Source of the DNA: Vermamoeba vermiformis
Taxonomy: Eukaryota
NCBI GenBank assembly: GCA_045837725.1
Contig: JBEWZL010000284.1
Coordinates: 62,001 to 101,035, forward strand
Direction of reading: 5' to 3'
DNA length: 39,035 nucleotides
A model generated the notes under the pieces. It had not been told where the DNA came from, did no database searches, and saw nothing but the letters and a program-made list of their open reading frames with translations. This document shows, piece after piece, positions 3,793 to 20,486 of the stretch (the first letter of the stretch is position 1; every line of letters starts with the position of its first letter). The position numbers and the translations under genes are program-made.

Positions 3793-5396
3793 ATGAGTGC
3801 AACATTTGTTGACGTTACTGGCGAAGCTGAGCAGTTTGCTGACTTGTTCGGCTATCTCGCTTCATTGAAGCCAGAGCTCAAGGCCGATGCAGACGAAAAA
3901 AATATTGAGAAAGCCGTAGAACAAAATAAACAAAGCGAGTTGTTGAAGAAATTATTATCTAGCCAACAGTTGGTTTTGGAACAAGGAGCAGAAAAAGGTA
4001 ATTATTACAATAATGAATTTTGAGATGATCTGATCGAAAAAAATTATTGATTCGGTTTGTGGAAGTCTTTTTCGCGATTATTAATTTAATAATATTACAT
4101 ATAGATGTCGAAGGATTTTTTGGATTGCAAACTACTTTAATCTTGAAGCACGGAGGCTCTAACACAAAAGATCTCTTGCATCAACAAGTCAAGGCTGTCG
4201 CCGCTAATCCTACAGAAAAATCCTTGGTTAAAATCACGGTGTACGTATTATATTGACAATATTATGCTAATGCAAATTTGATAATAATTATGGAACTGAT
4301 ATTACAAACAATAATTCATGCAAGCGCTTAATTGTCGTGATAAAAAGACTAATGTTGTATTTTGCAGTTTGAATAATATGTATAATCTTGCACAAGACAA
4401 CGATCTCAGAGCAGAAATTTTTGTCTCCTTGTTAAAATGCGCTGCATCTAACAGCGATCTGGTTTACCCTCTTTTTGATACCGTCGAGGATAAGTTCAGA
4501 GAGTGGAAGAGCTCAGTGGCACAAAAGCGCGAGGTTTACAAATTGCTCCGCGAGATGACTAAGGAAAAAGAAACGTGAGTACTGACCTTGGTGGATCCAC
4601 GATAAAACCGGATCTAATATCTTTATTACAGTGCTTTTTACAACAAATTTTCATTAAAATACTTCAAGACCTTCGAGGCCAACGAGGCTGCTAGCGTCAC
4701 TGGCGAGGCTAAGGCTTATGCTTTGGAAGTTTTGAAATCCAAGGACAACTATCAATTCGATGAGCTTTTTAGTCTGCCCGTCGTTAAGGCTCTCGAAAAA
4801 TCAGATGCTAACGTTTTCCAACTCCTCAAAATATTTAACAATGGTGATTTGGACAACTTTGCTTCATTCCCTCAAGGCGACGTTTCTGCTCTTGGATTGG
4901 ATGCGGATGTTTTGCGCCGAAAGATTACAATGTTGACTTTGGTCTCTTTGGCCTCTCAAAAGAGCGAGTTGACCTACGCTGAAGTCTCTAAGGCTTTGAA
5001 GCTCCAAAACGAAGATGAAGTCGAATACTGGGTTATCACCGCTGTTGGCGAGAAGTTGCTCGAAGCCAGAATGGATCCTACTGCTAAAACTATTTCTGTT
5101 GCGTAAGTAGTCGTGACTTACAGTACATTTATACCATCATCAGTATCCACAGTTGATATTTGAATGAAAATAATGGCCACTTACTGGTTCGCTCACGCGG
5201 ATCTTCTGACGATTACAATTCGAGCTTTTTTATTGCCAAAGATACTAACGAATATCATTATAGTCGATCATCTCACCGCTCATTCGACAAGGCTCAATGG
5301 GAGTCCTTGCGAGATCGTGTTGCCTTGTGGAAAGAAAACTTGGTCTCCGTTCTCAAGGTCATCCAAAGCGCCAAGAACGAAAAGCAAACCGCTTAA
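3793..5396 (+). CDS. EIF3M: Eukaryotic translation initiation factor 3 subunit M (PCI domain)
   Basis: Exons 3793-3997, 4105-4240, 4368-4574, 4632-5102 and 5264-5396 splice in frame. PCI-type segment RRKITMLTLVSLA..LTYAEVSKAL..EVEYWVITAV..LLEARMD. The C-terminal SHRSFDKAQWESLRDRVALWKENL is typical of eIF3m. Confidence 0.9.
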
Positions 5397-5672
5397 GTGC
5401 CCTAAAATCGGAACATAAGTCCTTAATAGCGATAACGAAAAGAGTATATTTATTCCAAAGTTTTTGTAATGGATCTTTGTATGCGCGTTAATTTTGGTGA
5501 AGATTCATCCAAGAACGACAAAAAAACATAAAAATAAATCAAATTATAATATGTTGATTAATATTTTTGTTGTGTGTTGCATTCCGAGGGAATCAAAATT
5601 TTGGATCACCGCAATTTAGTTCACCTTATTGTAAAATAGATGAAACAATAGAATTTTATGTATATTTGTTAA

Positions 5673-8459
5673 ATGGAGAATATAGTTGCTTCAGCTGCGG
5701 ATGTGATCAAAACTTATCGAGTTCCAAAGCTCGAAGCGGTTGTAGAATTTAAAAAACAGCACCAAGGCGAAATTAACGAAGTATCTTGGAACCATAATAG
5801 TAAGGAGATTGAATAGATTCGATTGCAAGGGCGTAATATTATTTGGCGCCTTTTTAGAAAATCAATTTGAATTTAATTATGTTATTTCGGCTTCTACGAG
5901 CGTTTTAGTGGTATACATAATTACGTGCATCTATTTATTAATATTCAATAATTTAGATAAATTATTGGCGACGGGCAGTGCGGATGGAAAAATCTATTTG
6001 AACAGAGCCGACGGTGCTTCGTTAGGAATGTTCCCCGACAAGGATAATTGCGTAAGCGGCATTTAATATTAACAATATATTGCTAACTAGCATTTAGGAA
6101 ACGAATTCCCTCTGCTTCAGTACCGGATCTCGTTATCTAGCTACAGGAGGCTCCGATAACCTCGTTAAAATTTGGGATTTAAAGAAAAAGAGCGTAGTTA
6201 AGTTATTCAAGGTACGTCAAAAGCTTGCCATGTAGTAGACTAGAGATCCTAGATCCTTGATCTCGGTTGCTAGTGTTACGGTCTACGCTCGATTTTGTTA
6301 GTTTTAATAATATATATGTATAGACACACACGGATACTATCACATGTATACGATTCAGCCGTACAGACTCTCACTTAGCCTCGTGTACACTCAACGGAGA
6401 GCTGCATGTGCACAACTTACTGAGCGGCAAAACAGTGGCTCAATATAAGTTAGAAGACGCAGTAAGTAGTAGTCGAGGCCGAAAATACGGAATTTAATAT
6501 TTGAAGCGTGATAGTATTCAAACTGTGTATGCGAATGTGTTCTAATGTCTCTGATTTGTTTAGGCTTTCAAGGCTATCAGATACGCACCGTTGAAAAAGA
6601 ACCAATTTGCTACATGTGCAGATTCGGGTGCAGTTCACATATGGGACTACACGAAGAAGCAACCAATTGGAGCGTTCAAAGGCACGTGTCAAGAGCGATA
6701 TTATCCCTCAGTAACACCTTTTAATCTGATCTTTTTCATGTGAAATAGGCCACACTGCACCGACTAGTGCCATAGTTTACTCACCAACTATGCCAACACT
6801 TCTTATTTCAGCCGGTCTTGATAAAAAGATCGTGCTCATCGACACAGTCAAACAAGCGTACGTCCGTCCTATTACTTAGCCTTCAGCCATATCATTAATA
6901 AATTTAATAGGGCCACTAAGGTCATTCAAACACAAGCTCCTCTGACGGCCATGGACTTGCACGATGATGGCAATACATTGGTGGTTGGTACTGCTTCGGG
7001 TATGCTTTTCTCAACTATGGTTTATTACGCTACGCTAATTGTACTGACATTGCTTTATAGGCAAAATCATCGTGTACGACATTCGCAATGAGGTTAAGGC
7101 AGTCAGTGAGGTTCAGGCTCATAGCACCATCATCAGATCCATTCAACTCCAGCACGCTGAAGTGAAAGTAAGATTCTTTCAACTAATCAATATAAGATAT
7201 TATTGCTCATGTTTATCTAGTCCGAGTTGATCAAGGACGATTTTATCCCCACGAGTCCTTCAGCCATGTCATTTAATAGCGGTGTCGATGACTCCACAGA
7301 AGATACTTTTGCTCGCCCAGGAGGCGTTCATGAAGTAGGTGACGTGCTTTCACCGTTGAAAGGGGGTAAGTTCTATTGATATATTATGGATAGAAGTTCT
7401 AATGATGATTTGTAGCGACACCAACGCGCCCCGAAGACGTTCTGTCACCCATCAGACCAATGGCAAACCTCGATGTCAATTCATCAATGGACCGCTCTTT
7501 GCATACTCCAGGAGGTCCTAATATGTCGTTCGACAATGGCGTCTTATCGCCTTTGAGCACTAAGACCGGCAACAACTTCAGCGTCTTGTCGCCCATTCAC
7601 CACGTCACAACATCTTCTCCGTTAGTGACGGCGAAGATGAGCTCACCGATGACAGGAGATGTCTTGTCTCCGTTAGGAAAAGACACGTACAGCAACGAGC
7701 TTTATACCAATACAAATGTCATCTCGCCCATCACGACTGGCCCTTCATTAACGATCAACAAGCCAACCAATGCGGACCTGTTCTCAACACCTGTCACCAA
7801 AACTGATCACAAGGACAAGGCTGCGTTCTCTATCGAAGAGTATGTTACGCTTCCTACTCGTTAGCAGCTACTAACAGCTCAATAGACCACCGGTTTCGCC
7901 AATCAAAGTTGAGACCCCTGTTTATCCTAAGTACACTCCTAGCGTCACAGCAGTTGACTTGCCGCCAACGGGCAGCTTCACAAACTACCAGTCCTCGCCT
8001 TCAGTAGAAATGACTGCCCCTGCAGGCACGCGCAAGAGCCTCAATCTTGGTCAACAGAAAGTTACAAACGTGTCAACAATGCAGACTGTTGAGTCTAGTA
8101 CAGCGAGCATTGCAGCCGAGACTATTAAGAAACCCGCACCGCAGTTACAGCCGGCAGTACAGGCGAGTCACAGCAGCGGATCTGGTTCCGAATACACGAG
8201 CCCACCGCAGAGTGTCAACCAAGCATTGCAGTTTCAACAACAGTTATTGCAAGGTGTTATCTCAGACAGCTTGGCATCGTTCAGAGAAGAGGTTCTGGGT
8301 CAAGTTCAGAACTTGCATCTGGAGCTATTAAGACAGTTCCAGATCCAACAAATGGAAATTAATGCTTTGATGCAACATCATTACGGCGAGAAGCAAGAGT
8401 TATTAGAAGAGATTAAGCGGCTGAAAGAAGAGAATAGGAGACTTAAGGACCTGTATTGA
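5673..8459 (+). CDS. NEDD1: NEDD1 / GCP-WD gamma-tubulin ring complex targeting factor (WD40 repeats + C-terminal helical domain)
   Basis: Multi-exon gene. N-terminal WD40 repeats (EINEVSWNHN, SRYLATGGSDNLVKIWDLKKK, HTDTITCIRFS). Ser/Pro-rich linker. The C-terminus SLASFREEVLGQVQNLHLELLRQFQIQQMEI..LLEEIKRLKEENRRLK matches the NEDD1 gamma-tubulin-binding tail. Confidence 0.9.
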
Positions 8460-8564
8460 GCAACTAAAAGTTACGTAAGCCTTTCTAACTAGTTACGGAT
8501 CGAGTCATCACTGAACTTTTTTCTGCCGCAGATCGGACCACTAATGATAATTTATTTAAAATTT

Positions 8565-9971
8565 CTATAGTTGCAACACCAATACGATGCCACTAATAAT
8601 CAACAGTAAAGAAAGGTGGTTCGTTACGTGAGTTACGTCGCTTGTCCTTGCTTTCGGCACGTTAGAGTTACCTTGAGGAGAGCTTGATTGAGGAGCAGAT
8701 GTTTGAGGACTTGCTACATACGGCGCTGATTGAGGTATTTGTTCTAATGTCATTCAACCGATTAATACTTACTCGACCAGAAGGTTAAATGCTGTTGCTG
8801 CTCGACTTACCGAATGAGCCAACGCGAATGAACCAAATGTTGCTGCTCACCGATGGCTGCATCACAAACACATTGAGACCAGGTACGTAAAGAAACCGCT
8901 TGTTGATGCCTGATCCGGAGCTGGGCGTAGAGGGTGGTGTCGCAGATCCCTCAGTCAAAGGCAAAGTACTCATTTCCCAACCATCACTGCCATCATTCGG
9001 AGTGATGACGTAGATACGTCCGACCGAGGAGAGCTGGCCATAGTAGAATAGAAAGCGGTCATTCACAGGATCATAGTCCATGGCAGAGTACGTTGGAGAT
9101 TCGGAGATGAACAGATCCAGCGCACTACTGTTTTTGAAGGTGACTTTGTACTGCGCATCACCAGGGTTGAGCGGAATGCGCGACGCTTGCACGCCTAAAT
9201 CCGTATTATAGCCTTGACCGTCTCCGAACTCCAGTGTGAAAAGTTGATGACGACGCGTGTCATGTGCCCATGGCCAGCGTGCAAAGATGTTAGCATTCTT
9301 GGTGATTGGGTTTGTCAACTCTTTCTTCTCCAAATCGATGCGAGTCAAGCTGTTGGCCCAGATGATGCTGCTGTTGGTTTCACGAAGTACCCCGTATCCT
9401 TTAGTGATGTTTGGCCAAGTGTTTTGTGGATCCCATTGGTTCGTGTCAGGATTGAACCCGTCAGTCGTCGGAAAGGCCGTACCACTTCCAAATACACCGT
9501 AGGCACCACATAGAATAATTCTATTGATTGCAGGAACCCACATGCTGTGTTGATAGTTGTGACGAGAAGAAGGCAAGCCATCTTTATAGTAGGCCACGTC
9601 TTCAACGACAAACTCTTGGGGAGTTGGCTGTGCGCGCATGATCCACTGTGGCTGATCGTCTGTCAACTTAATTGATACAACTCGATTATCATGAGAGTCA
9701 TGATGACCACCGTTAGCAACGACGAACAACTCCGTGGTGTCTTCTCGAAGAACGAAGCTGCCCCAAGGATCAATTGCTGCTCCTCCAGCACCGCTCGTGC
9801 CGTTAATTTCAAACCATTGATTCATTGGTTTGCCTGCTAGCCATGCTGGTTCGGCGGCCTAACAATGGTTTGAGGTGATGATTCAAATGCCAATGTGAGA
9901 GAGTTGGTATTTACCGAAGTACATCCAACCACAGCGAAAAGAAAGAGAAGGACATACAACCCAGAAGACAT
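8565..9971 (-). CDS. Secreted, probably GPI-anchored protein with a bacterial-like, probably beta-propeller domain; tandem copy A
   Basis: Exon 9971-9915 encodes the signal peptide MSSGLYVLLFLFAVVGCTS. Exon 9858-8811 encodes AAEPAWLAGKPMNQWFEING...IWFIRVGSF. Exon 8743-8565 encodes an S/P/Q stalk plus hydrophobic tail. All junctions are in frame. Confidence 0.85.
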
Positions 9972-10042
9972 CAGAGCCGATTCGTTTGTGGTCGTGGTAT
10001 GGAATTTAATAGAATACAAATCTTTATGACTTATTTAAATGA

Positions 10043-10094
10043 GGGACGGGACAGGCCTGTCCCCAGGGGACGTTGGATTGAAATTTCACCAGAG
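10043..10094. promoter_or_regulatory. Upstream motifs shared by the two propeller paralogues (GGACGGGACA..CAGGGGAC and the palindrome TGAAATTTCA)
   Basis: The same motifs recur in the same order at 11684-11743 upstream of copy B, while the surrounding non-coding DNA has diverged. Copy A also has the perfect 16-bp palindrome GGGACAGGCCTGTCCC at 10048-10063. Confidence 0.45.
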
Positions 10095-10219
10095 TGTCAC
10101 CGATCGATCAACAGTCATCACGGTAACCGACTCACAAATCCTAATATAATCGTTCATTTATTAGCGTATTACAAAAATAACGTCATTTACTAGTACATAA
10201 AATAATAATGGCTCGGTTT

Positions 10220-11607
10220 TTAGCTCATTAAAACGAGACTGATTATCACTACTATCACTGATAGGTAGCTCATAACGGCAGAAACATCGCTCGTCCTTGC
10301 TTTCGGCACATTAGAGCTTGATTGAGGAGAGTTCGATGACTGAGGAGCAGTTGTTTGAGGACTTGCTACATACGGCGCTGATTGAGGTATTTGTTCTAAC
10401 GCCAATTAATTACTACTAACTCACTTTATGATGACAGTAGTGTCTTGACTTACCGAAAGAACCAACGCGAATGAACCAAATGTTGCTGCTCACCGATGGC
10501 TGCATCACAAACACATTGAGACCAGGTACGTAAAGAAATCGTTTGTTGACGCCAGCCCCAGGAGCGGAGGGCGGTGTTGCAGATCCGTCGGCCAAAGGCA
10601 AAGTGCTCATTTCCCAACCATCACTGCCATCGTTCGGAGTGATGACGTAGATGCGACCAGCTGAGGTAAGTTGACCATAATAGAACAGAAAGCGGTCATT
10701 CATGGGATCGTAGTCCATGCCAGCGTACGTCGGGGCTTCGGAGATGAACAGATCCGTTGTGGAGCTATTTTTGAACGTGACTTTGTACTGCGTGTCACCA
10801 GGGTTTAGTGGAATACGTGCGGCTTGAATACCTAACTCGGTATTAAAGCCTTGACCGTCTCCAAATTGCAGCGAGAAGAGTTGATGACGACGCGTATCAT
10901 GCGCCCATGGCCAGCGTGCAAAGACATTGGCAGTCGTTGTGATTGGTTTTGTCAACTCTTTCTTCTCAAGATCGATGCGAGTCAAGCTGTTGGCCCAAAT
11001 GATGCTGCTGTTAGTTTCACGGAGCACTCCGTATCCTTGAGTGATGTTTGGCCAAGTGTTTTGTGGATCCCATTGATTCGTGTCAGGATTGAATCCGTCA
11101 ATCGTCGGAAAGGCATAGGCAGATCCGTACACGGCATAAGCGCCGCACATAATGAGGCGATTAATTGCCGGGACCCACATGCTGTGTTGATAGTTGTGAC
11201 GAGCAGAAGGCAAGCCATCTTTATAGTAGGGCACGTCTTGAACGACAAGTTCCTGGGGAGTCGGCTGTACGCGTACGATCCACTGTGGCTGATCGTCTGT
11301 CAGCTTAATGGAGACAACTCGATTATCATAAGAGTCTCCATGGCCGCCACTGGCAGCGACAAAAAGCTCCGTGGTGTCTTCTCGAAGAACGAAACTGCCC
11401 CAAGCATTCAGTGCTGCTCCGCCAGCACCGCTCGTGCCGTTAATTTCAAACCATTGATTCATTGGTTTGCCTGCTAGCCATGCTGGTTCGGCAGCCTAAT
11501 TTATTGATATCATTAATATTTAGTTAATTATTTAATTCAAAGTTGGCACTTACCGAAGCAAATCCAACGACAGCAAAAACAAAAAGAAGGGAATATAACT
11601 TTGCCAT
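10220..11607 (-). CDS. Secreted, probably GPI-anchored protein with a bacterial-like, probably beta-propeller domain; tandem copy B
   Basis: Exons 11607-11554 (MAKLYSLLFVFAVVGFAS), 11495-10454 and 10395-10220. Same intron positions as copy A and colinear with it. Confidence 0.85.
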
Positions 11608-11859
11608 TAGAAGTCGATTCGTATGTGGTCGTGGTATGGAATCATATTATTTGACAGAACACGGAAACGCGAGCAGTTTGACAGGACGGGACAAACAGGG
11701 GACTTTTGCGAACAAAGAATCTTCGGTGAAATTTCATCCAGAGCTTTAAAAAGCATCACTCCGCTTGGCATTCATGTCGCTAAGGACGGTATTTTTACAA
11801 TTTTACCTTTGCAAGCCGCTTTTTCGCTTGCGTGGCATTTATTTTTATACAATCTGCAG

Positions 11860-13850
11860 CTATACAATAACGTACAATACAAACATAATTACAAGAGAAT
11901 AGACAGGTGTCATTGCACCTCCAATAGACTTTGCATCTGCTGGTTGTTGTGGTGTAGCGGTTTTACTGGGCGCAGCAGATCCAGGCACAGCAGCTGTTTG
12001 CGGCTGATTTTCGTTACTTGGCCCAGCACTAGGCACTTCGCTATTAACTGGCGATGACGAAGGCGGCGAGGAGGTGTTGGGCGGATCAATTGGAGAGGAG
12101 CTCGGAGTATCAATAGGACTAGCAACTGGAGCTTGCACCACCCGATCGCCATTCGCCTCGGATCCGGTCTCTTTCAAGCCAGACGAAACGAATCCTACGG
12201 TGCTCGAACCATCAGGATTGAGTACTTGGTTCATTAAGGTCGTGTTTGAAGCACTTTGAATGAAAGTTTGAACACTTTGGGAGGCGGAAGGTTCGCTGGT
12301 TCCAGATCCTGCACCAGCGATCTCGAGTTCGAGTGTGGCCAGATCTGCTTGATTGATCGATCGTTTAGCACCTCCACCATAAGTATATCCAATCACAATA
12401 ATTCGCGAAGGTGAGATCTGCAGCAGAGTAGCGATCGATTGTACAATGGTTGCTATCTCTGCATCCGTCAAATTTCGAGCAGCGGTGAATGTAACGGATA
12501 CTTTCAATGCTGCTGGACAAAGATTATTGATGTTGGCAGTATTAATGGTAAGTTGATGATCGTTTAAAGTCCACGTAGTCGTTTGTCCATCCCAAGGAAT
12601 CGAAAAAGCATTAACAGGGTAATATTCTGGTAGAAATTAGCAAGGATGAAATATTTTTTGTTATCACGTACGAGATCTGCCTGGTGCGAATGTCGTCAAT
12701 TGACCGCGATCTGCATCCCCTGGCGAGAAAGAGTTCTGGGGGCCTATATCAAACTGCTTGGACACACTTCCGAGATTATTATAGCCGAAATGAGCTATAT
12801 AAGAGCCTCCTCCTAAGTCTTCAAAGCACTCCAAAATTGGTACCAGACCAGTCGGCGCTGTACCGTACATTAACTTTCAAATTTTGTTCTATTTCTTTGT
12901 AATATCCTTACTAGCTGTAAAGTCCCACGTAGTTATTTCTTGCTGCATATATCCACCGCCAGTTGCACCGCTCAAGCCGAGGTAGTATTTCCCAGGCCCA
13001 AAGTACTGCGTAATGTCCAACGTGAAGGTTTGATCCGTTGCGGTAACTGGAGCTCTAATCTAATTAAGCATATCAAATTAATATCTTAAAATTGGTAGAA
13101 CAATAGTTTTAGCTACCCGGAAAGTGGATGGCGGGGAGTAGTCGATCCTAACGGTAAGCGGACCTGAGCATCGCCAAGACAACATATTCATGTCTTGCAG
13201 AAAAGGAACATTGTCGGCAGGGCCCATAGTCATGCCCACAGCGCTATATTACCAAGTTCAGTAAAAGCTTAAAAAGTTTGACTTCGTATAAATTGCAATA
13301 AAATCGAGTATCGATAAAAACTAATATTTCAATGAATATTTGGCTCTTTATAGTCGAATCAAAGACGTACTTTGCTTTGAACAGGATCTTGCCTTGCCAA
13401 ACGATAAAGCCTACTAACGCGATGCTAGTTTTTTCAGTTAGACCCAACGAGGATCCAAACGATACATCTTCGTTAGTATTAATTGACGGTGCAATGAAGA
13501 ACGCAAAACTAAAATAATAAAAAATTAATACTTTAATAACAGTCGCCTACGAGATCTTACCCGTCCGCTCCTCCAGACCAGACAATAGTGTCACAGCTCG
13601 TACTTTGGTATGTTAATGTGGTAGTGAATCCATCCAATACGTTTTGGGCCTCGCTCCAGTAAACAACAGATCCGGTACCTTGTTCGGCTAAGCTTAAAAT
13701 TACACTTCCTGTCGATATAGATCCGTTTCCTTGAAGTACGAAGTTATTTACAGGAATATTAGGAGCGGCGATGCTGAAATCCGCTATCGCGTGGTGCGTA
13801 AAGTAACCGAAAGTGAACAAAAATAAAATCCCTAAATTATATGACACCAT
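11860..13850 (-). CDS. Secreted, probably GPI-anchored multidomain protein (L-type legume-like lectin + uncharacterised PILEC...GY.N...FSP...DRGQ domain + SEA-like/mucin stalk); tandem copy A
   Basis: Six exons splice in frame. Signal peptide, then lectin motifs (FVLQGNG, DGFTTT, GGADGFAFF, YYLGLSGATGG..QEITTWDFT), then VPILECFEDLGGGSYIAHFGYNN..FSPGDADRGQLTTFAPGR, then a P/S/T-rich stalk and a hydrophobic C-terminus. Confidence 0.8.
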
Positions 13851-14114: not shown

Positions 14115-16022
14115 CTATAGGAGGACTACAACCACCACTGCTACCACCAATGACATTACAGTTGACATCGAAGTTGCGAGCGAAACAGCTTTGGGCACAG
14201 TCGACGGCGCAGTGGTTGCAACAGGCTGTGCGACGGGCGATGTGACAGGTGGAGCGACAACAAGTGAGCCAGTGCCTTCAACGCCCGTTGACTTCGGATT
14301 CACCGATATGACTTCAATGGTGTTCTCGGTGCCCGGTGGATTGAGCACTTCATTTACAAGCGTGCTGTTCGATGCACTGTTGACGAACTTCTGAACACTT
14401 TCTGCGGCTGAAGGCTCGTTCTCCGTCTGCGAATCTGTGCCACTGATCTCGAGCTCGAGTGTGCCTTGCTGACTTTGCATTATAGATCGAGCAATTGGCA
14501 AGGAGATGATCACGTAATTGACACTGGTGACCGTGACACGCGTGGATGAAATTCCCAAGAAGTTGGCCAGGGACTGCACTATCGCATTGATCTGGGTATC
14601 GCTAAGATTCGCTGCAGTTGAGAAGACGATGACAATTTTAAGTGATTTGGGACAAAGAAAAGCTGTGTTGGCCGCGTTGAACCTCACAAAGTTTGATGTC
14701 AAGTTCCACGTCAATTCGGTTCCGTTCCATCCAAAGGAGAATGCACTTAACGGATAGCTTGCTACTCTAAACGTCAGTATGATGCATAATATATTCATCA
14801 CATATCATTTGAATTGCCAGTATTAGACTTACTGGATCTACCACTTTGGAAGGTTGTCGGTTGACCACGATCTTGCGGGTCTGGGGAGAAGCCGTTATTT
14901 GGGCCAACCTCATAAGAGAGCGGTGCTGTCGTTGGGTTTCGATAGCCCATGTATGCTACATATGTGTCTTTGTTGGCTGGCTTTTCGTAGCACTCCAGAA
15001 TAGGAATGACCTCTGGGGGTGGCGGAACTGAAATTGGTCTCAATTAGCACTTGTAGCGTAATGATATATCTAGTCTTCGGCGTACCACCAGTGAATTCCC
15101 AGGAGGTAATTGTTTGTTTCATGAACGCCTGACCAGTCGCAGCACTTAAGCCGACGTACAACTGCGAATAGGGATCAAAATAGTTCCTCAAGTCCATAGT
15201 GATGGATTCATTGAGATTTGTAGTGTTGCTCGTTATCTACGCGATTATTAGTTCATATTCTTGTAATACTGTTAAGAGTTTTGAACGTACGCGGAAAGTT
15301 GGAGGAGCGTACTCGATTTGAACGTAGATCCCGGGAGAATAACACCGCCATCCAGATACAATAGCATTAACAGCTGTATAACCTGCGCGGGGACCCAGAA
15401 TAGCTTCAGTTCTGTGGCGGAGGAAAAGATTAAATATGAACTTTAAAAAAGAATTATTCTATAAACCAAATTAAAGATGATTAAAGTGCATCTTCGGATG
15501 TGGAAACTACATAGAGTTAATATAGATAACTTACGTTGCTTTGTAAACTATTTTATCGTTCAACAGATCAAATCCGACCATTGCAATATTCGTTTTATTC
15601 GCTAGGCCTAATGTTCCTCCTGTAGATAATGTTTCTGAGGTATTAATTGACGAGGCGAAGAAAAATGAGAAGCTGTCAAAATAAAAAATTATTAATTATT
15701 CTTTGGGATCGCGCAGTCTTGCTTACCCGTCTCCGCCGCCATAATAGGGAACCACATCGCAATCCGTGCTTATGTATAATATAGTAGCTTTGAAGCCATG
15801 TTGAACATCTTGTGCGTATTTCCAATAGACAATAGATGAGGTTGCTTGCTGGTTCAACGACAGAATTATGTCTGTTGTTGACACAGAGCCATTTCCTTGA
15901 AATACTAGATTATCTACTGGAATACTTGGGGTTGAAATAGTGAAGTCAGCTGTAACTAGAACAGATGCGCAACAAATATATAAAAACAAAATCTGTAAAG
16001 CGACGCTTAAGTCTGGGGTCAT
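14115..16022 (-). CDS. Paralogue of the preceding lectin + uncharacterised-domain GPI protein; tandem copy B (alternative ATG at 16043)
   Basis: Same architecture: ADFTISTPSIPVDNLVFQGNG, GGGDG, LYVGLSAATGQAFMKQTITSWEFT, VIPILECYE..YVAYMGYRN..FSPDPQDRGQPTTFQSGR, stalk, and terminal MSLVVAVVVVVLL. Confidence 0.8.
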
Positions 16023-18057: not shown

Positions 18058-20486
18058 TTAGTGAGGGTATCTAGGATCGTGGCGGCGCTTTCTCTCGGGA
18101 GCCTTAATAATTTCATCGATACGCAAAATCATTTCAGCGGCTTCAGCGGCAGACATCAAGATCTGCATCTTAACCTTCAAAGACTCCTTAATGCCCATGC
18201 TGGCCATATCACCGATCTCTCCGGTCTCCATGTTCAAACCAGCGTGCACCTTGCCTTCGTAGTGGGCAGCCTTCAATTGAGAAACCAATTCTGAGCTGTC
18301 GTAACCAGCGTTGTCAGCCAAAATCGTGGGGATCATACGCAAAGCTCTGTATAACATCATTAGTACTGAAGTCGATGATAGATTAGATCCGATCTGAGGT
18401 TTTCGATTACATTCTACAGCATTGTAGAGGTTAAAATATAGTAGTAACGGTACATACCTAGCAAAGGCTTCAATAGCAAGCAATTTCTTGCCCGGGGTTT
18501 TCTTGGCCAACTCTTCGACAGCTTGGGCCATGATCGATTCAACGCATCCACCACCGTACACGGTGCGAGTTTCTTTAGTGGTTTGAGTCAAGACGCACAA
18601 AGCATCGTGCAATGATCGCTCAGCTTCGTCCAAAATGTGCTTAGTGGCACCGCGCAAGACGATAGTGCAAGCCTCGCCGCGTTCAACACCGCTGAACTTG
18701 ATAACCTTGTCTTCACCAATCATAATCTCTTCAATCAATTTGCAGTGACCGAGCTTGACACGTTCGGGGTTGTCGAAGGTAGAAACGATCTCACCACCAG
18801 TGACAAAGGCAAGACGCTCAATGCCTTCAAAGTCAGCGTGTTCAATGGCCATCACACCGTGGTCGGCGAAGTATTGTTCGGGCAAGTTGTAGATCAACTG
18901 TCTGTTGATAAAGCAGTTGATTTGATGGTTGACAATCTTCTCGCACTTGGCAAGCATGCGGTCCTAAGGAAAACAATTCTGTTAGGTGGATTCGGTATTG
19001 CATTTTCTAGATCTCCGTTACATGAATTCTGTTATTATAAATAATATAAAGCGCACGTATATAATAATTCAACACAGCTTTTGTAATCAACTTACACGCT
19101 CAGCCTTCTCAATCTTAGCCAATTCAGCGGGCGAATCCACTTGGACCTTGGCACTGTAGATCTTGACTTTATCGTTGTCCATAGCAGTGTTGGCCAACAA
19201 AATCTTAGCGTTTTCAATACGCTTAGGTTGACCGACACCGATCTTCTTCTCCAAAATAAAACCTTCGTCCAAGAATGAATCTTCTAATGACCCACCAACC
19301 TTCTTAATAATATGAATCATTTGTAAATCAGTGCTGCCCTTCAATCTCATCACTGCATCGACGGCCAACTTGGCGAAGTGGTCCATGTGAGTAGAGTTCT
19401 GGCCCAAAATCTTCGAGCCCAAAGTGGTACGAGCGATCTGCAACAGATCTTGTTTGAATTTTTCTGTTTAAGAAGAACCGTTAGTATATTAATGTTATTG
19501 CAATATTAAGCCACAAAAGTCCAACTCTCTGTTCGATACGAGCAGATCTAGATCGTGTAACACGGGTGTTTGCGTACCTTTATCTGAAGAATTATCAGTA
19601 GAAGACTTGACCAAAGCCTCGCGAGCAACATCGACGGCCATTCTCCAACCTATATTGATAATATTAGCACATTCGCTCCTATTATAAGCACAGAAAATTT
19701 GACGGATGTGACCTACCTTCGATGATGGTTTGAGGGTGGATCTTTTGGAACATAAGCTTCTCGGCTTCACGGAGGAGCTCACCAGTCAATACACAAACAC
19801 TGGTAGTACCGTCACCGACTTCATCGTCTTGTGTTTTGGAAATATCGACCAAGATCTGCGATCGAGCGGTCAGTCTTGTTAAACGATAACAAGTAATTTT
19901 TGTGATCGTAGAATATCCTTATATGAATATTCGTGATCGCTTGCAAATGTTTGTCGAGACTTACCTTGGCAGCAGGATTCGAAACGTGAATCGACTTCAA
20001 AATGGTAGCACCGTCATTAGTAACTTGAAGTTCATTGAATCGAGCGCCATCACTGGAGGGTTGCAAAATTTTATCCTGCATGGTATTAGTTAAATTGGTT
20101 GTTATACGCCTTTGTCATAATAAATCCAGCAGAAAAATTATTATTCGCTGTAAATTAATAAATGAAGCCAGAAAAATATGCTTACTTGTCCTTTCGGTCC
20201 CAAAGTGGTTTTCAAAAGGTCTGTAACGGCAAGAACACCAACAAACAAACGCTATCAATTATAAAAAATTATTATCAGTTCGATCCAATAATTATTATTC
20301 AAATCTCTCGTACGTTTCGTGCTTCCTCTCCCTTCTCTTCCTTAGTATCTTGTTGGAAAATGTTCACTCCTCCTCCTTGGGGAACGTTATCCTCTCTGCT
20401 TTGAAATTGCTCCTGATGCAGATCGGACAGTTAGTATCGGATTCATTCGATAGCTTCCGTCCAATTATTAATATTACCTCCGACAT
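18058..20486 (-). CDS. CCT2: T-complex protein 1 subunit beta (chaperonin CCT2)
   Basis: Multi-exon gene with a 9-nt first exon (MSE). Motifs [82 protein letters not shown] and [23 protein letters not shown] are diagnostic of the beta subunit. Confidence 0.97.

Follow-up and report, generated by a model that had tools for sequence, protein, structure and literature searches.

A bacterial-type propeller domain held in a single exon between putative targeting exons in Vermamoeba vermiformis

The stretch of DNA analysed here (39,035 nucleotides of Vermamoeba vermiformis, hereafter the window) contains on its minus strand two tandem three-exon genes, for which reading of the sequence and construction of spliced models gave products of 427 and 423 aa. 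The central exon of both codes for a whole propeller domain whose named relatives are bacterial proteins. The data support that this domain came from a bacterium and was then domesticated and duplicated in the host. We consider it likely that an ancestor of this protist acquired a secreted bacterial propeller, that it was fitted with targeting exons and duplicated, and that the products act on or bind glycans at the cell surface.

Gene structure

Both genes have the same layout, a short exon for a putative signal peptide followed by a single domain exon and by a Ser/Pro-rich stalk exon with a hydrophobic tail. Each exon 2 encodes the complete domain of ~348 aa, and its length in the two copies (1048 and 1042 nt), like the outer coordinates of the pair (8565 and 11607), had been given exactly in an earlier note made from the sequence. 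The features are as follows.

9915-9971, minus strand: copy A exon 1, start codon and 19-aa hydrophobic signal-peptide-like leader, ending in phase 0 before GTAAAT
9859-9914, minus strand: copy A intron 1, 56 nt, GT..AG, modelled from sequence
8811-9858, minus strand: copy A exon 2, 1048 nt, predicted six-bladed Kelch-type propeller domain in full, with bacterial origin supported
8744-8810, minus strand: copy A intron 2, 67 nt, GTAAGT..AG, phase 1, modelled from sequence
8565-8743, minus strand: copy A exon 3 including the stop codon, a stalk rich in Ser, Pro and Gln followed by a hydrophobic C-terminal tail of 16 residues that is GPI-signal-like and lacks a basic end
11554-11607, minus strand: copy B exon 1, start codon and 18-aa signal-peptide-like leader
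11496-11553, minus strand: copy B intron 1, 58 nt, GT..AG
10454-11495, minus strand: copy B exon 2, 1042 nt, propeller domain
10396-10453, minus strand: copy B intron 2, 58 nt, GTAAGT..AG
10220-10395, minus strand: copy B exon 3 including the stop codon, stalk followed by hydrophobic tail
9975-10005, strand not given: 31-nt upstream element (repeat family D6), just 5' of the copy A start codon
11612-11642, strand not given: second copy of this element, 5' of copy B, 94% identical to the first

The 31-nt element is possibly a 5'UTR or core promoter. A scan of the whole window against Rfam gave no match.

The earlier note had placed the only two introns of each gene at the edges of the domain, and both indeed fall within 3-5 residues of the start and end of the bacterial homology, which extends from residue 4 to ~345 of the 349-aa exon-2 protein. 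Bacterial proteins of the sister clade (see below) stop three residues past a shared F-I-R motif, at the position of the present splice donor. The two exon-2 frames (359 and 357 aa) are the second and third longest stop-to-stop frames in the window, where the other long ones have 495, 309, 301 and 258 aa, and so their length is unusual, though not unique. To this extent the description of exon 2 as far longer than most exons holds, but the frame of 495 aa is longer still.

The tandem pair is real, as proposed, with a repeat unit of ~1637-1652 nt. The domain exons of the two copies are 87% identical and their proteins share 302 of 349 residues. Divergence between them (dS 0.52, dN 0.075, dN/dS 0.145) indicates purifying selection on both copies.

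Splice junctions

The exon 1/2 junction of copy B is present in one 376-nt contig of run X5, which comes from a relative. This contig (depth 15.4, 69 letters on its shorter arm) leaves out precisely the 58 nt of copy B intron 1, and the skipped segment ends in CT..AC on the plus strand. X5 was taken as RNA by guess; if it is DNA, the junction contig represents an intron-less allele and not splicing. Contigs of the same run match copy B exon 2 at 90-99% identity, and in one of them the match ends exactly at 10454 and is followed by 18 unplaced letters. The exon 2/3 junction is visible solely in P0002, the gene model of a relative (423 aa, 70% identical), with leader, domain, identical exon 2/3 junction, stalk and tail in that order. 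Of the junctions implied by the earlier note, therefore, copy B exon 1/2 is seen in the X5 contig and exon 2/3 in the P0002 model, while those of copy A are modelled only. The runs listed as containing the stretch include no RNA run, and three RNA-seq runs labelled as the same species (X21-X23, ~13 million records each) gave 1, 0 and 0 matching reads, numbers that are no gauge of expression. A metagenome scan for DNA of the relatives retrieved 32 loci that did not exceed 48% identity and of which not one belonged to the intron-bearing clade, and for this reason the intron positions of the relatives are drawn from ORF-called proteins only; in several of them these proteins break at the intron-2 position of copy A.

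Genomic context and age of the genes

Host genes flank the propeller pair on both sides on a single contig, which also carries CCT-beta, and the introns are GT..AG spliceosomal introns of 56-67 nt, supporting integration and the domestication that had been suggested. In a quick tree of CCT-beta, built from a set biased towards the top matches, the window sequence groups with amoebozoan-type sequences and not with Holozoa (SH-aLRT 92). As the best matches are bacterial, contamination or a chimeric assembly might be invoked, but both genes contain two such introns next to flanking exons of host type, a single 39-kb contig has host genes to either side of the pair, the same tandem pair is repeated on an independent 9161-nt record, and 30-82% of the sampled words of the stretch were found in four DNA runs. 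Together these observations make an artefact extremely improbable.

The transfer had also been described as relatively recent, which we could not sustain. The GC3 of the propeller genes is host-like (0.51, with a host range of 0.36-0.57) and several divergent relatives have the gene, and on these grounds recency is unsupported. An identical intron-2 position also occurs in the gene of at least four more divergent relatives (63-81% identity) and, in the 59-row tree described below, the duplication is older than the split from the source of P0001/P0104. The RSCU correlation with host ORFs was 0.50, versus 0.75 for one half of the host set against the other, in a small sample.

A large family of bacterial homologues

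Protein searches with exon 2 that included nr, UniRef and EukProt produced 103 matches. The nine that carry an organism name are all bacterial and none is a named eukaryotic protein; intron-bearing relatives and a second GPI-like clade nevertheless exist. The representatives of the family number 939 with a limit of E<=1e-3 and 153 when the limit is E<=1e-30. Alignments to the bacterial proteins span 98-100% of the exon-2 protein with 40-58% identity (E 1e-125 to 1e-50). When a 20-row family alignment was used to search a collection of bacterial and archaeal species genomes, the 63 loci recovered were all bacterial, mainly from Bacteroidota, Bdellovibrionota, Pseudomonadota, Planctomycetota and Myxococcota. 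Members include T9SS type A sorting domain proteins (P0003 and P0011, from a Bacteroidota MAG) and proteins annotated as hypothetical in Archangium, Planctomycetota, Massilia and Pelomonas.

The four motifs listed in the earlier note (PAWLAGKP.NQW.EI, GGH.DS.DN.V, PSSRH.Y and M.YDP.NDRFL) coincide with the most conserved columns of this bacterial family. G51, H52 and H100 are invariant in 123 of 123 family sequences, and of the 46 columns conserved at 85% or more, 42 are retained by both copies and by P0002 alike, including H52, H100, R99, D93 and D263. The window proteins thus have in common with the bacterial family, which has no Pfam or NCBIfam model, the overall homology, the conserved motifs and both invariant histidines. 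They differ at the ends. Spliceosomal introns, a leader of eukaryotic type and a stalk that runs into a GPI-like tail set the window genes apart; the bacterial members show in their place a lipobox or signal peptide, T9SS tails, Ig domains or, at the N-terminus, a PL26-like module. The T9SS tails and lipobox-like leaders mark the bacterial proteins as extracytoplasmic.

Searches for a functional name in Pfam, NCBIfam, PDB (by sequence) and the ESM Atlas gave none. Among the Pfam models Kelch_1 to Kelch_6, the single match of copy A was to Kelch_3, whose 12.2 bits (E 0.22) fall short of the cut-off of 22, and copy B had no match; PF24681 is present in a few bacterial members. The PDB matches by sequence were designed Kelch proteins only (1.6e-10) and those in the ESM Atlas were bacterial 'hypothetical protein' clusters. 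No paper on this propeller family or on its transfer was found in the main texts of an open-access collection.

Phylogenetic position

In a careful ML tree (59 rows, 363 columns) the window copies and their intron-bearing relatives form one clade with support 100/100. Its sister is a Bdellovibrio-type clade (P0004, P0005 and L002; 91/88), and the Bacteroidota T9SS clade (100/100) joins both at a weakly supported node (84/60). In a quick tree of 93 rows, these three clades lie within a 20-row group with support 98. Identity of the intron-bearing clade to the two bacterial groups is 52-58%. The exon-2 protein groups inside bacterial diversity, as had been anticipated, the tree being unrooted and the nesting resting on a midpoint root and on the family distribution. 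With the all-bacterial named matches and loci, this placement among bacterial clades argues for the bacterial origin. The earlier label of 'proteobacterial' was right in that the family is present in Burkholderiales, but the nearest relatives are the Bdellovibrio-type and Bacteroidota T9SS proteins.

It could also be considered that the gene is ancient in eukaryotes, having come down by vertical descent with loss from most lineages, its bacterial likeness being either old or due to a transfer from eukaryotes to bacteria. The lack of a root, the several divergent intron-bearing relatives and the host-like composition are compatible with it. Against it, named eukaryotic proteins are missing from the 103 matches, the family is spread over hundreds of representatives in mainly five bacterial phyla, and the eukaryote-type clade shows 52-58% identity to one particular bacterial subgroup, above the identity found between bacterial subgroups. 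We regard vertical descent as very unlikely and favour the acquisition from a bacterium. A viral vector was also considered; 28 IMG/VR loci encode relatives (the best, L080, at 51%), none of them closer than the Bacteroidota proteins.

Predicted fold

The AF2 model of the exon-2 domain (pLDDT 96.8, pTM 0.94) predicts six four-stranded blades forming a Kelch-type beta-propeller, in agreement with the propeller called from the sequence. Solved Kelch propellers matched the model with VIA Z of 20-24, the best three being the Kelch domain of LZTR1 (Z 24.4, rmsd 3.0, 285 aligned), KLHDC3 (22.6) and muskelin (22.2), over 280-285 residues. Plant specifier proteins (21.8) share the fold as well, and the sialic-acid mutarotase YjhT/NanM (19.8, 10% identity) is similar in fold only. 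Sequence identity between the window domain and the solved structures is ~10%, so the likeness to the predicted model would be one of fold alone.

Cell surface and glycans

The copy A leader has a mean Kyte-Doolittle hydropathy of 1.81 over its first 19 residues. The S+T+P+Q+A fraction of the stalk is 0.69 in copy A and 0.72 in copy B, and the mean hydropathy of the tail 2.69 and 2.44, respectively. From these sequence features a surface location of the products is plausible. Both proteins end within the hydrophobic stretch without basic cytoplasmic residues, and the stretch itself comes after small residues and a short polar spacer, features that by eye are GPI-signal-like and from which we infer a putative GPI anchor. 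The tail could instead be a plain transmembrane anchor or remain unused, giving a type I membrane or secreted protein, and the case for GPI comes from sequence features alone. Yet the spacer, the small residues and the ending without basic residues speak against this, as does the conservation of the stalk and tail layout in P0002, and we think it rather unlikely that the proteins are not GPI-anchored.

The indications about function come from the bacterial members. Among 150 listed representatives (of the 939), 22 have at least 881 aa, with the propeller domain as their very last part. In one of these long proteins the first 744 aa were modelled as a beta-sandwich plus an alpha/alpha barrel, whose best match was a PL26 exo-rhamnogalacturonan lyase, that of Penicillium chrysogenum (5xqg and related). 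The likeness is moderate (Z 11.9, rmsd 4.7, 496 residues aligned, Foldseek probability 0.99, with the PcRGLX_1st Pfam match below threshold) and concerns only the N-terminal module of these ~1100-aa Burkholderiales proteins, a module missing from the window genes. In Burkholderiales, the fusion to this PL26-lyase-like module is often near exopolysaccharide genes. Among 58 neighbouring ORFs at 29 bacterial loci there were Acetyltransf_6 in five, GT2 in three, and UDP-glucose dehydrogenase and polysaccharide deacetylase in one each, a modest enrichment. The direct neighbours at five bacterial loci were heterogeneous, as around the nearest relatives, where adhesin-like repeats and peptidases occur. 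The fusion and the exopolysaccharide neighbours indicate a glycan role, the link being drawn from fused and neighbouring genes of Burkholderiales and not from the nearest bacterial relatives; by extension, the window proteins would bind or process glycans. The two histidines, being invariant throughout the family, suggest a catalytic or metal site.

Most Kelch propellers bind proteins, among them the top structural matches (LZTR1, KLHDC3, muskelin and KLHL), and the gene of Archangium and Bdellovibrio adjoins EGF-repeat and PMP/Ig-repeat adhesin-like proteins. The domain might accordingly belong to a protein-binding surface receptor or adhesin without glycan chemistry. This has perhaps one chance in a few, since the structural matches at ~10% identity reflect fold only, the histidine pair is invariant, and the PL26-like fusion and exopolysaccharide-gene neighbours point to glycans, the reading that we prefer.

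Proposed history

The sequence of events would be as follows. The gene of a secreted six-bladed Kelch-type beta-propeller would have passed from a bacterium to a protist ancestor, the donor being nearest to the present Bdellovibrio-type lipoproteins and Bacteroidota T9SS cargo proteins. A host signal-peptide exon would have taken the place of the bacterial leader and linker, and the end of the bacterial reading frame would have turned into a 5' splice site leading to an exon of host type that encodes a Ser/Pro stalk and a GPI-like tail. With the leader replaced and the frame end now a splice site, the whole foreign domain would stand as one exon between two targeting exons. We infer in this way that the targeting exons were added to the domain, as opposed to a later insertion of introns. 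Tandem duplication would have come next, with purifying selection keeping both copies, including the two invariant histidines. The product, presumably exposed at the outside of the plasma membrane, may bind or process a glycan; a polysaccharide of bacterial or extracellular origin is the likeliest candidate, and through it a bacterivorous cell would recognise prey or biofilm.

Implications

Gene transfer from bacteria to protists is well known. The kind of event is therefore not new, and the window offers an unusually legible and clean case of it, yet one with precedents. For the bacterial alpha-amylase of Basidiomycetes (PMC3584928) and for rusticalin, from an ascidian (PMC6339383), a foreign coding region is reported to be built into a gene of host structure that has introns and directs export. 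By comparison, the foreign portion in the window is still one uninterrupted exon, its only two introns lie at the ends of the bacterial homology and a GPI-like tail is present. What was the bacterial stop region would now provide the splice donor for a stalk and anchor exon of the host. Such an intact foreign exon, with introns at the homology ends and the stop region serving as donor, makes a good natural model for the gain of eukaryotic targeting.

The genes also draw attention to a large family in Bdellovibrio, myxobacteria, Planctomycetota, Bacteroidota and Burkholderiales, whose function is directly testable given the confident predicted fold, the invariant histidines and the PL26-like and exopolysaccharide link. 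As a tentative proposal, which we hold to be possible but short of probable, the family may represent a new class of glycan-active or glycan-binding modules of predatory and polysaccharide-degrading bacteria that eukaryotes captured at least twice independently, in the same form of signal peptide, propeller, stalk and GPI tail. One capture may have given the window clade, beside the Bdellovibrio-type and Bacteroidota proteins, and the other the P0015/P0016/P0018 clade inside Burkholderiales. If true, this double capture would be a convergent domestication, pointing to a strongly selected surface function such as the recognition of prey or biofilm polysaccharides.

Gene models and splice junctions

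The window carries a bacterial Kelch-type propeller gene that has been domesticated as a predicted surface protein and duplicated in tandem. Two long stop-to-stop frames were listed in 8000-12200, both on the minus strand (8785-9858 and 10416-11495), each with a short hydrophobic ATG-initiated frame on its 5' side and a Ser/Pro-rich frame with a hydrophobic end on its 3' side. Models built with canonical GT..AG boundaries gave two three-exon genes (leader, propeller exon 2, stalk and tail exon), copy A and copy B, with products of 427 and 423 aa.

Modelled exons and introns of the two propeller genes
9915-9971, minus strand: copy A exon 1
56 nt, minus strand: copy A intron 1 (GT..AG)
8811-9858, minus strand: copy A exon 2 (1048 nt)
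67 nt, minus strand: copy A intron 2 (GT..AG)
8565-8743, minus strand: copy A exon 3
11554-11607, minus strand: copy B exon 1
58 nt, minus strand: copy B intron 1 (GT..AG)
10454-11495, minus strand: copy B exon 2 (1042 nt)
58 nt, minus strand: copy B intron 2 (GT..AG)
10220-10395, minus strand: copy B exon 3

The exon lengths and outer coordinates of the earlier note, which had described a recently transferred bacterial propeller exon set between signal-peptide and GPI exons and then duplicated, match these models exactly. The tandem unit is 1637-1652 nt long, the exon-2 proteins are identical at 302 of 349 residues, and a 31-nt element directly upstream of each start codon is 94% identical between the copies. 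By length the exon-2 frames rank second and third among the open frames of the window, which is unusual but not unique, as other frames have 495, 309 and 301 aa. The 3' end of exon 2 with the start of intron 2 (8801-8910 against 10444-10553) is 95% identical, the rest of exon 2 86-87%; local gene conversion or added constraint may explain this patch. A second neighbouring pair of paralogous genes lies on the minus strand at 11860-12636 and 14115-14804; their products agree at 82 of 178 residues (46%, E 2e-46), and both have a stalk rich in Ser and Pro and a hydrophobic C-terminus. This pair looks like another surface-protein family adjoining the propeller genes.

From three RNA-seq runs labelled as the same species, 1, 0 and 0 reads fell on the window, too few to test expression. 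Contigs of X5, a run from a differently labelled relative whose RNA nature is a guess, match copy B at 90-99% identity. One of them (376 nt) jumps from 11494/5 to 11553/4; the 58 nt that it omits have CT..AC ends and are exactly intron 1 of copy B. If X5 is DNA, this contig would be an intron-less allele rather than a product of splicing; in either case exons 1 and 2 of copy B form one reading frame. Another X5 contig matches precisely as far as 10454, where exon 2 ends, and leaves 18 letters unplaced. For the exon 2/3 junction the evidence is a relative's gene model, P0002 (423 aa, 70% identity), which has a leader, the domain and then the same stalk motif and hydrophobic tail, the last exon-2 residues running directly into the stalk with nothing between. 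Five ORF-called relatives (P0105, P0001, P0104, P0048 and P0220) read into intron-like sequence exactly at this point, indicating that the position of intron 2 is common to several lineages, and P0014 reads through it in frame. Junction evidence covers exons 1 and 2 of copy B (X5) and exons 2 and 3 of P0002, the junctions of copy A being model-based.

Eukaryotic genes, CCT-beta among them, lie on the same contig. Named CCT-beta matches are 60-66% identical, and a quick 34-row tree, a biased sample, grouped the window sequence with amoebozoan-type sequences (SH-aLRT 92), with Holozoa apart (99). The host is probably an amoebozoan. A short stretch of the CCT-beta frame (18058-18963, minus strand, 301 aa) is missing from CCT-beta proteins elsewhere and is probably an intron that stays in frame; the closest database protein to this frame, P0249, shares 97% identity with it across 263 aligned columns. 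A CCT-beta record labelled locust (P0270) paired with the protist-like P0251 (SH-aLRT 100) among amoebozoan-type rows, away from animals, and may hold a protist contaminant.

Bacterial relatives and phylogeny

A word-indexed search found 103 relatives, and all nine named by organism were bacterial MAG proteins: Bacteroidota T9SS cargo (53-58% identity) and proteins of Planctomycetes, Archangium, Myxococcaceae and Pseudomonadota (39-45%). The exhaustive search of representatives gave 939 clusters at E<=1e-3 and 153 at E<=1e-30. Scanning bacterial and archaeal species genomes yielded 63 loci in Bacteroidota, Bdellovibrionota, Burkholderiales and other Pseudomonadota, Planctomycetota and Myxococcota, with one partial match in Sumerlaeia. 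Among the open-access papers searched we found none on this propeller family or on the transfer. Relatives (23-51% identity) are also encoded by 28 IMG/VR contigs classed as viral (L064-L091), including the 385-kb L077. In a Bacteroidota MAG, locus L001 carries two tandem propeller paralogues (4483-5874 and 5920-7302), each with a T9SS tail, and the pair adjoins another T9SS-tailed protein; tandem duplication of the family therefore also occurs in bacteria.

A quick tree of 93 rows (59 locus translations, 32 database proteins and the two window copies, without partial loci L053, L058, L059 and L063) was reduced to a careful tree of 59 by dropping 34 long-branched, partial or near-duplicate rows. 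The intron-bearing sequences fell into a single clade of the careful tree (100/100), in which copy A paired with P0104 and copy B with P0001, followed by P0014 and P0002. This pairing indicates that the duplication is older than the split from the organism whose 9161-nt record carries P0104 and P0001. The sister group is Bdellovibrio-type (P0004, P0005 and L002; 91/88), and the Bacteroidota T9SS group (100/100) joins both at a weak node (84/60; SH-aLRT 98 in the quick tree). Since the tree is unrooted, the direction of transfer is judged from distribution, a single narrow clade with introns set against a family spread over mainly five bacterial phyla.

Three proteins, P0015, P0016 and P0018, likewise combine leader and domain with a stalk rich in Pro, Ala and Ser and a hydrophobic end that lacks basic residues, and were placed inside Burkholderiales (99/89 and 100/98, careful tree). 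Constraining them with the window's clade cost 49.9 log-likelihood units (AU p 0.008), a test weakened because the groups were picked after the tree had been seen. They may represent a second, independent eukaryotic capture, as a candidate only.

Age and selection

The transfer had been called relatively recent, which the data do not support. The propeller genes have a GC of 0.50-0.51 and a GC3 of 0.51, inside the range of 0.36-0.57 seen for 11 host frames of the window, relatives are 63-81% identical, and dS between the copies is 0.52. P0229 stops two residues beyond those aligned to Y-Y-K92, and these two would fit a GT donor, and P0014 opens with non-homologous sequence and joins the domain at D93, which suggests an extra intron between K92 and D93 in these two relatives, one that the window copies lack. 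Host-like GC3, divergent relatives, dS and this apparent intron leave "recent" unsupported. Both copies appear functional, given a dN/dS of 0.145 between them and 42 of 46 conserved columns retained.

Fold, function and surface location

By sequence the domain has no family name: Pfam gave Kelch_3 alone for copy A (E 0.22) and no match for copy B, NCBIfam gave no match, the PDB returned designed Kelch proteins only and the Atlas bacterial "hypothetical protein" clusters. The AlphaFold2 model from a 123-row alignment (pLDDT 96.8, pTM 0.94, all-beta) is a six-bladed Kelch-type propeller, on which Foldseek and an all-against-representatives VIA search concur. The VIA matches were LZTR1 (Z 24.4, rmsd 3.0, 285 aligned), KLHDC3 (22.6), muskelin (22.2), plant specifier proteins (21.8 and 20.7) and YjhT/NanM (19.8), each at ~10% identity. 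G51, H52 and H100 do not vary across the 123 rows. In Keap1-type Kelch domains the top-face central pocket is lined by the residue that follows the Gly-Gly doublet and by those that follow the Pro-x-x-Arg motif, and H52 and H100 would therefore presumably share one pocket.

Bacterial members are extracytoplasmic, with T9SS tails, lipobox-like leaders or signal peptides. Among 150 listed representatives, 22 are long forms (881-1551 aa) with the propeller at the extreme C-terminus, and the N-terminal region of a Massilia protein is common to 16 of the 22 when aligned (43-59% identity). Its model, a beta-sandwich and an alpha/alpha barrel (pLDDT 80.5), best matched a PL26 exo-rhamnogalacturonan lyase (Foldseek probability 0.99; VIA Z 11.9, rmsd 4.7, 496 aligned) and next GH88/GH105-type barrels (Z ~10); a sub-threshold PcRGLX_1st Pfam match in P0131 agrees with the PL26 likeness. 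Neighbours were surveyed from 34 of the 63 loci, five of them without a clean ORF call; the 58 flanking ORFs at the other 29 included Acetyltransf_6 (5), GT2 glycosyltransferase (3), UDP-glucose dehydrogenase (1) and polysaccharide deacetylase (1). Genes beside the closest relatives encode adhesin-like proteins or peptidases. The extracytoplasmic location, the PL26-like fusion and the neighbour genes lead us to favour, tentatively, a glycan-binding or glycan-processing surface module over a protein-binding receptor, which we regard as rather unlikely.

In the protist, the product would sit at the cell surface via a GPI-like tail. In both copies this tail has a hydropathy of 2.4-2.7 and lacks a basic end, the stalk before it is 69-72% S/T/P/Q/A, and there are four N-x-S/T sequons per protein.

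Proposed domestication of the bacterial gene

In the alignment bacterial homology spans exon 2 from residue 4 to ~345 of 349. Sister-clade proteins have a lipoprotein-type leader and a Ser/Pro/Thr linker before the domain and terminate three residues past a shared F-I-R motif; at this expected frame end the window has a GTAAGT donor, followed by the stalk and tail exon. As read from this alignment, a host-type leader exon would have taken the place of the bacterial N-terminus, and the former frame end would have become a splice donor into the stalk and tail exon, which is as old as the intron-bearing clade because it is conserved in P0002 and P0014. The feature described in the earlier note is real and was correctly described. 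The transfer belongs to an already known type of event and stands out for its clean exon architecture, and the case brings to light a large unnamed bacterial protein family.
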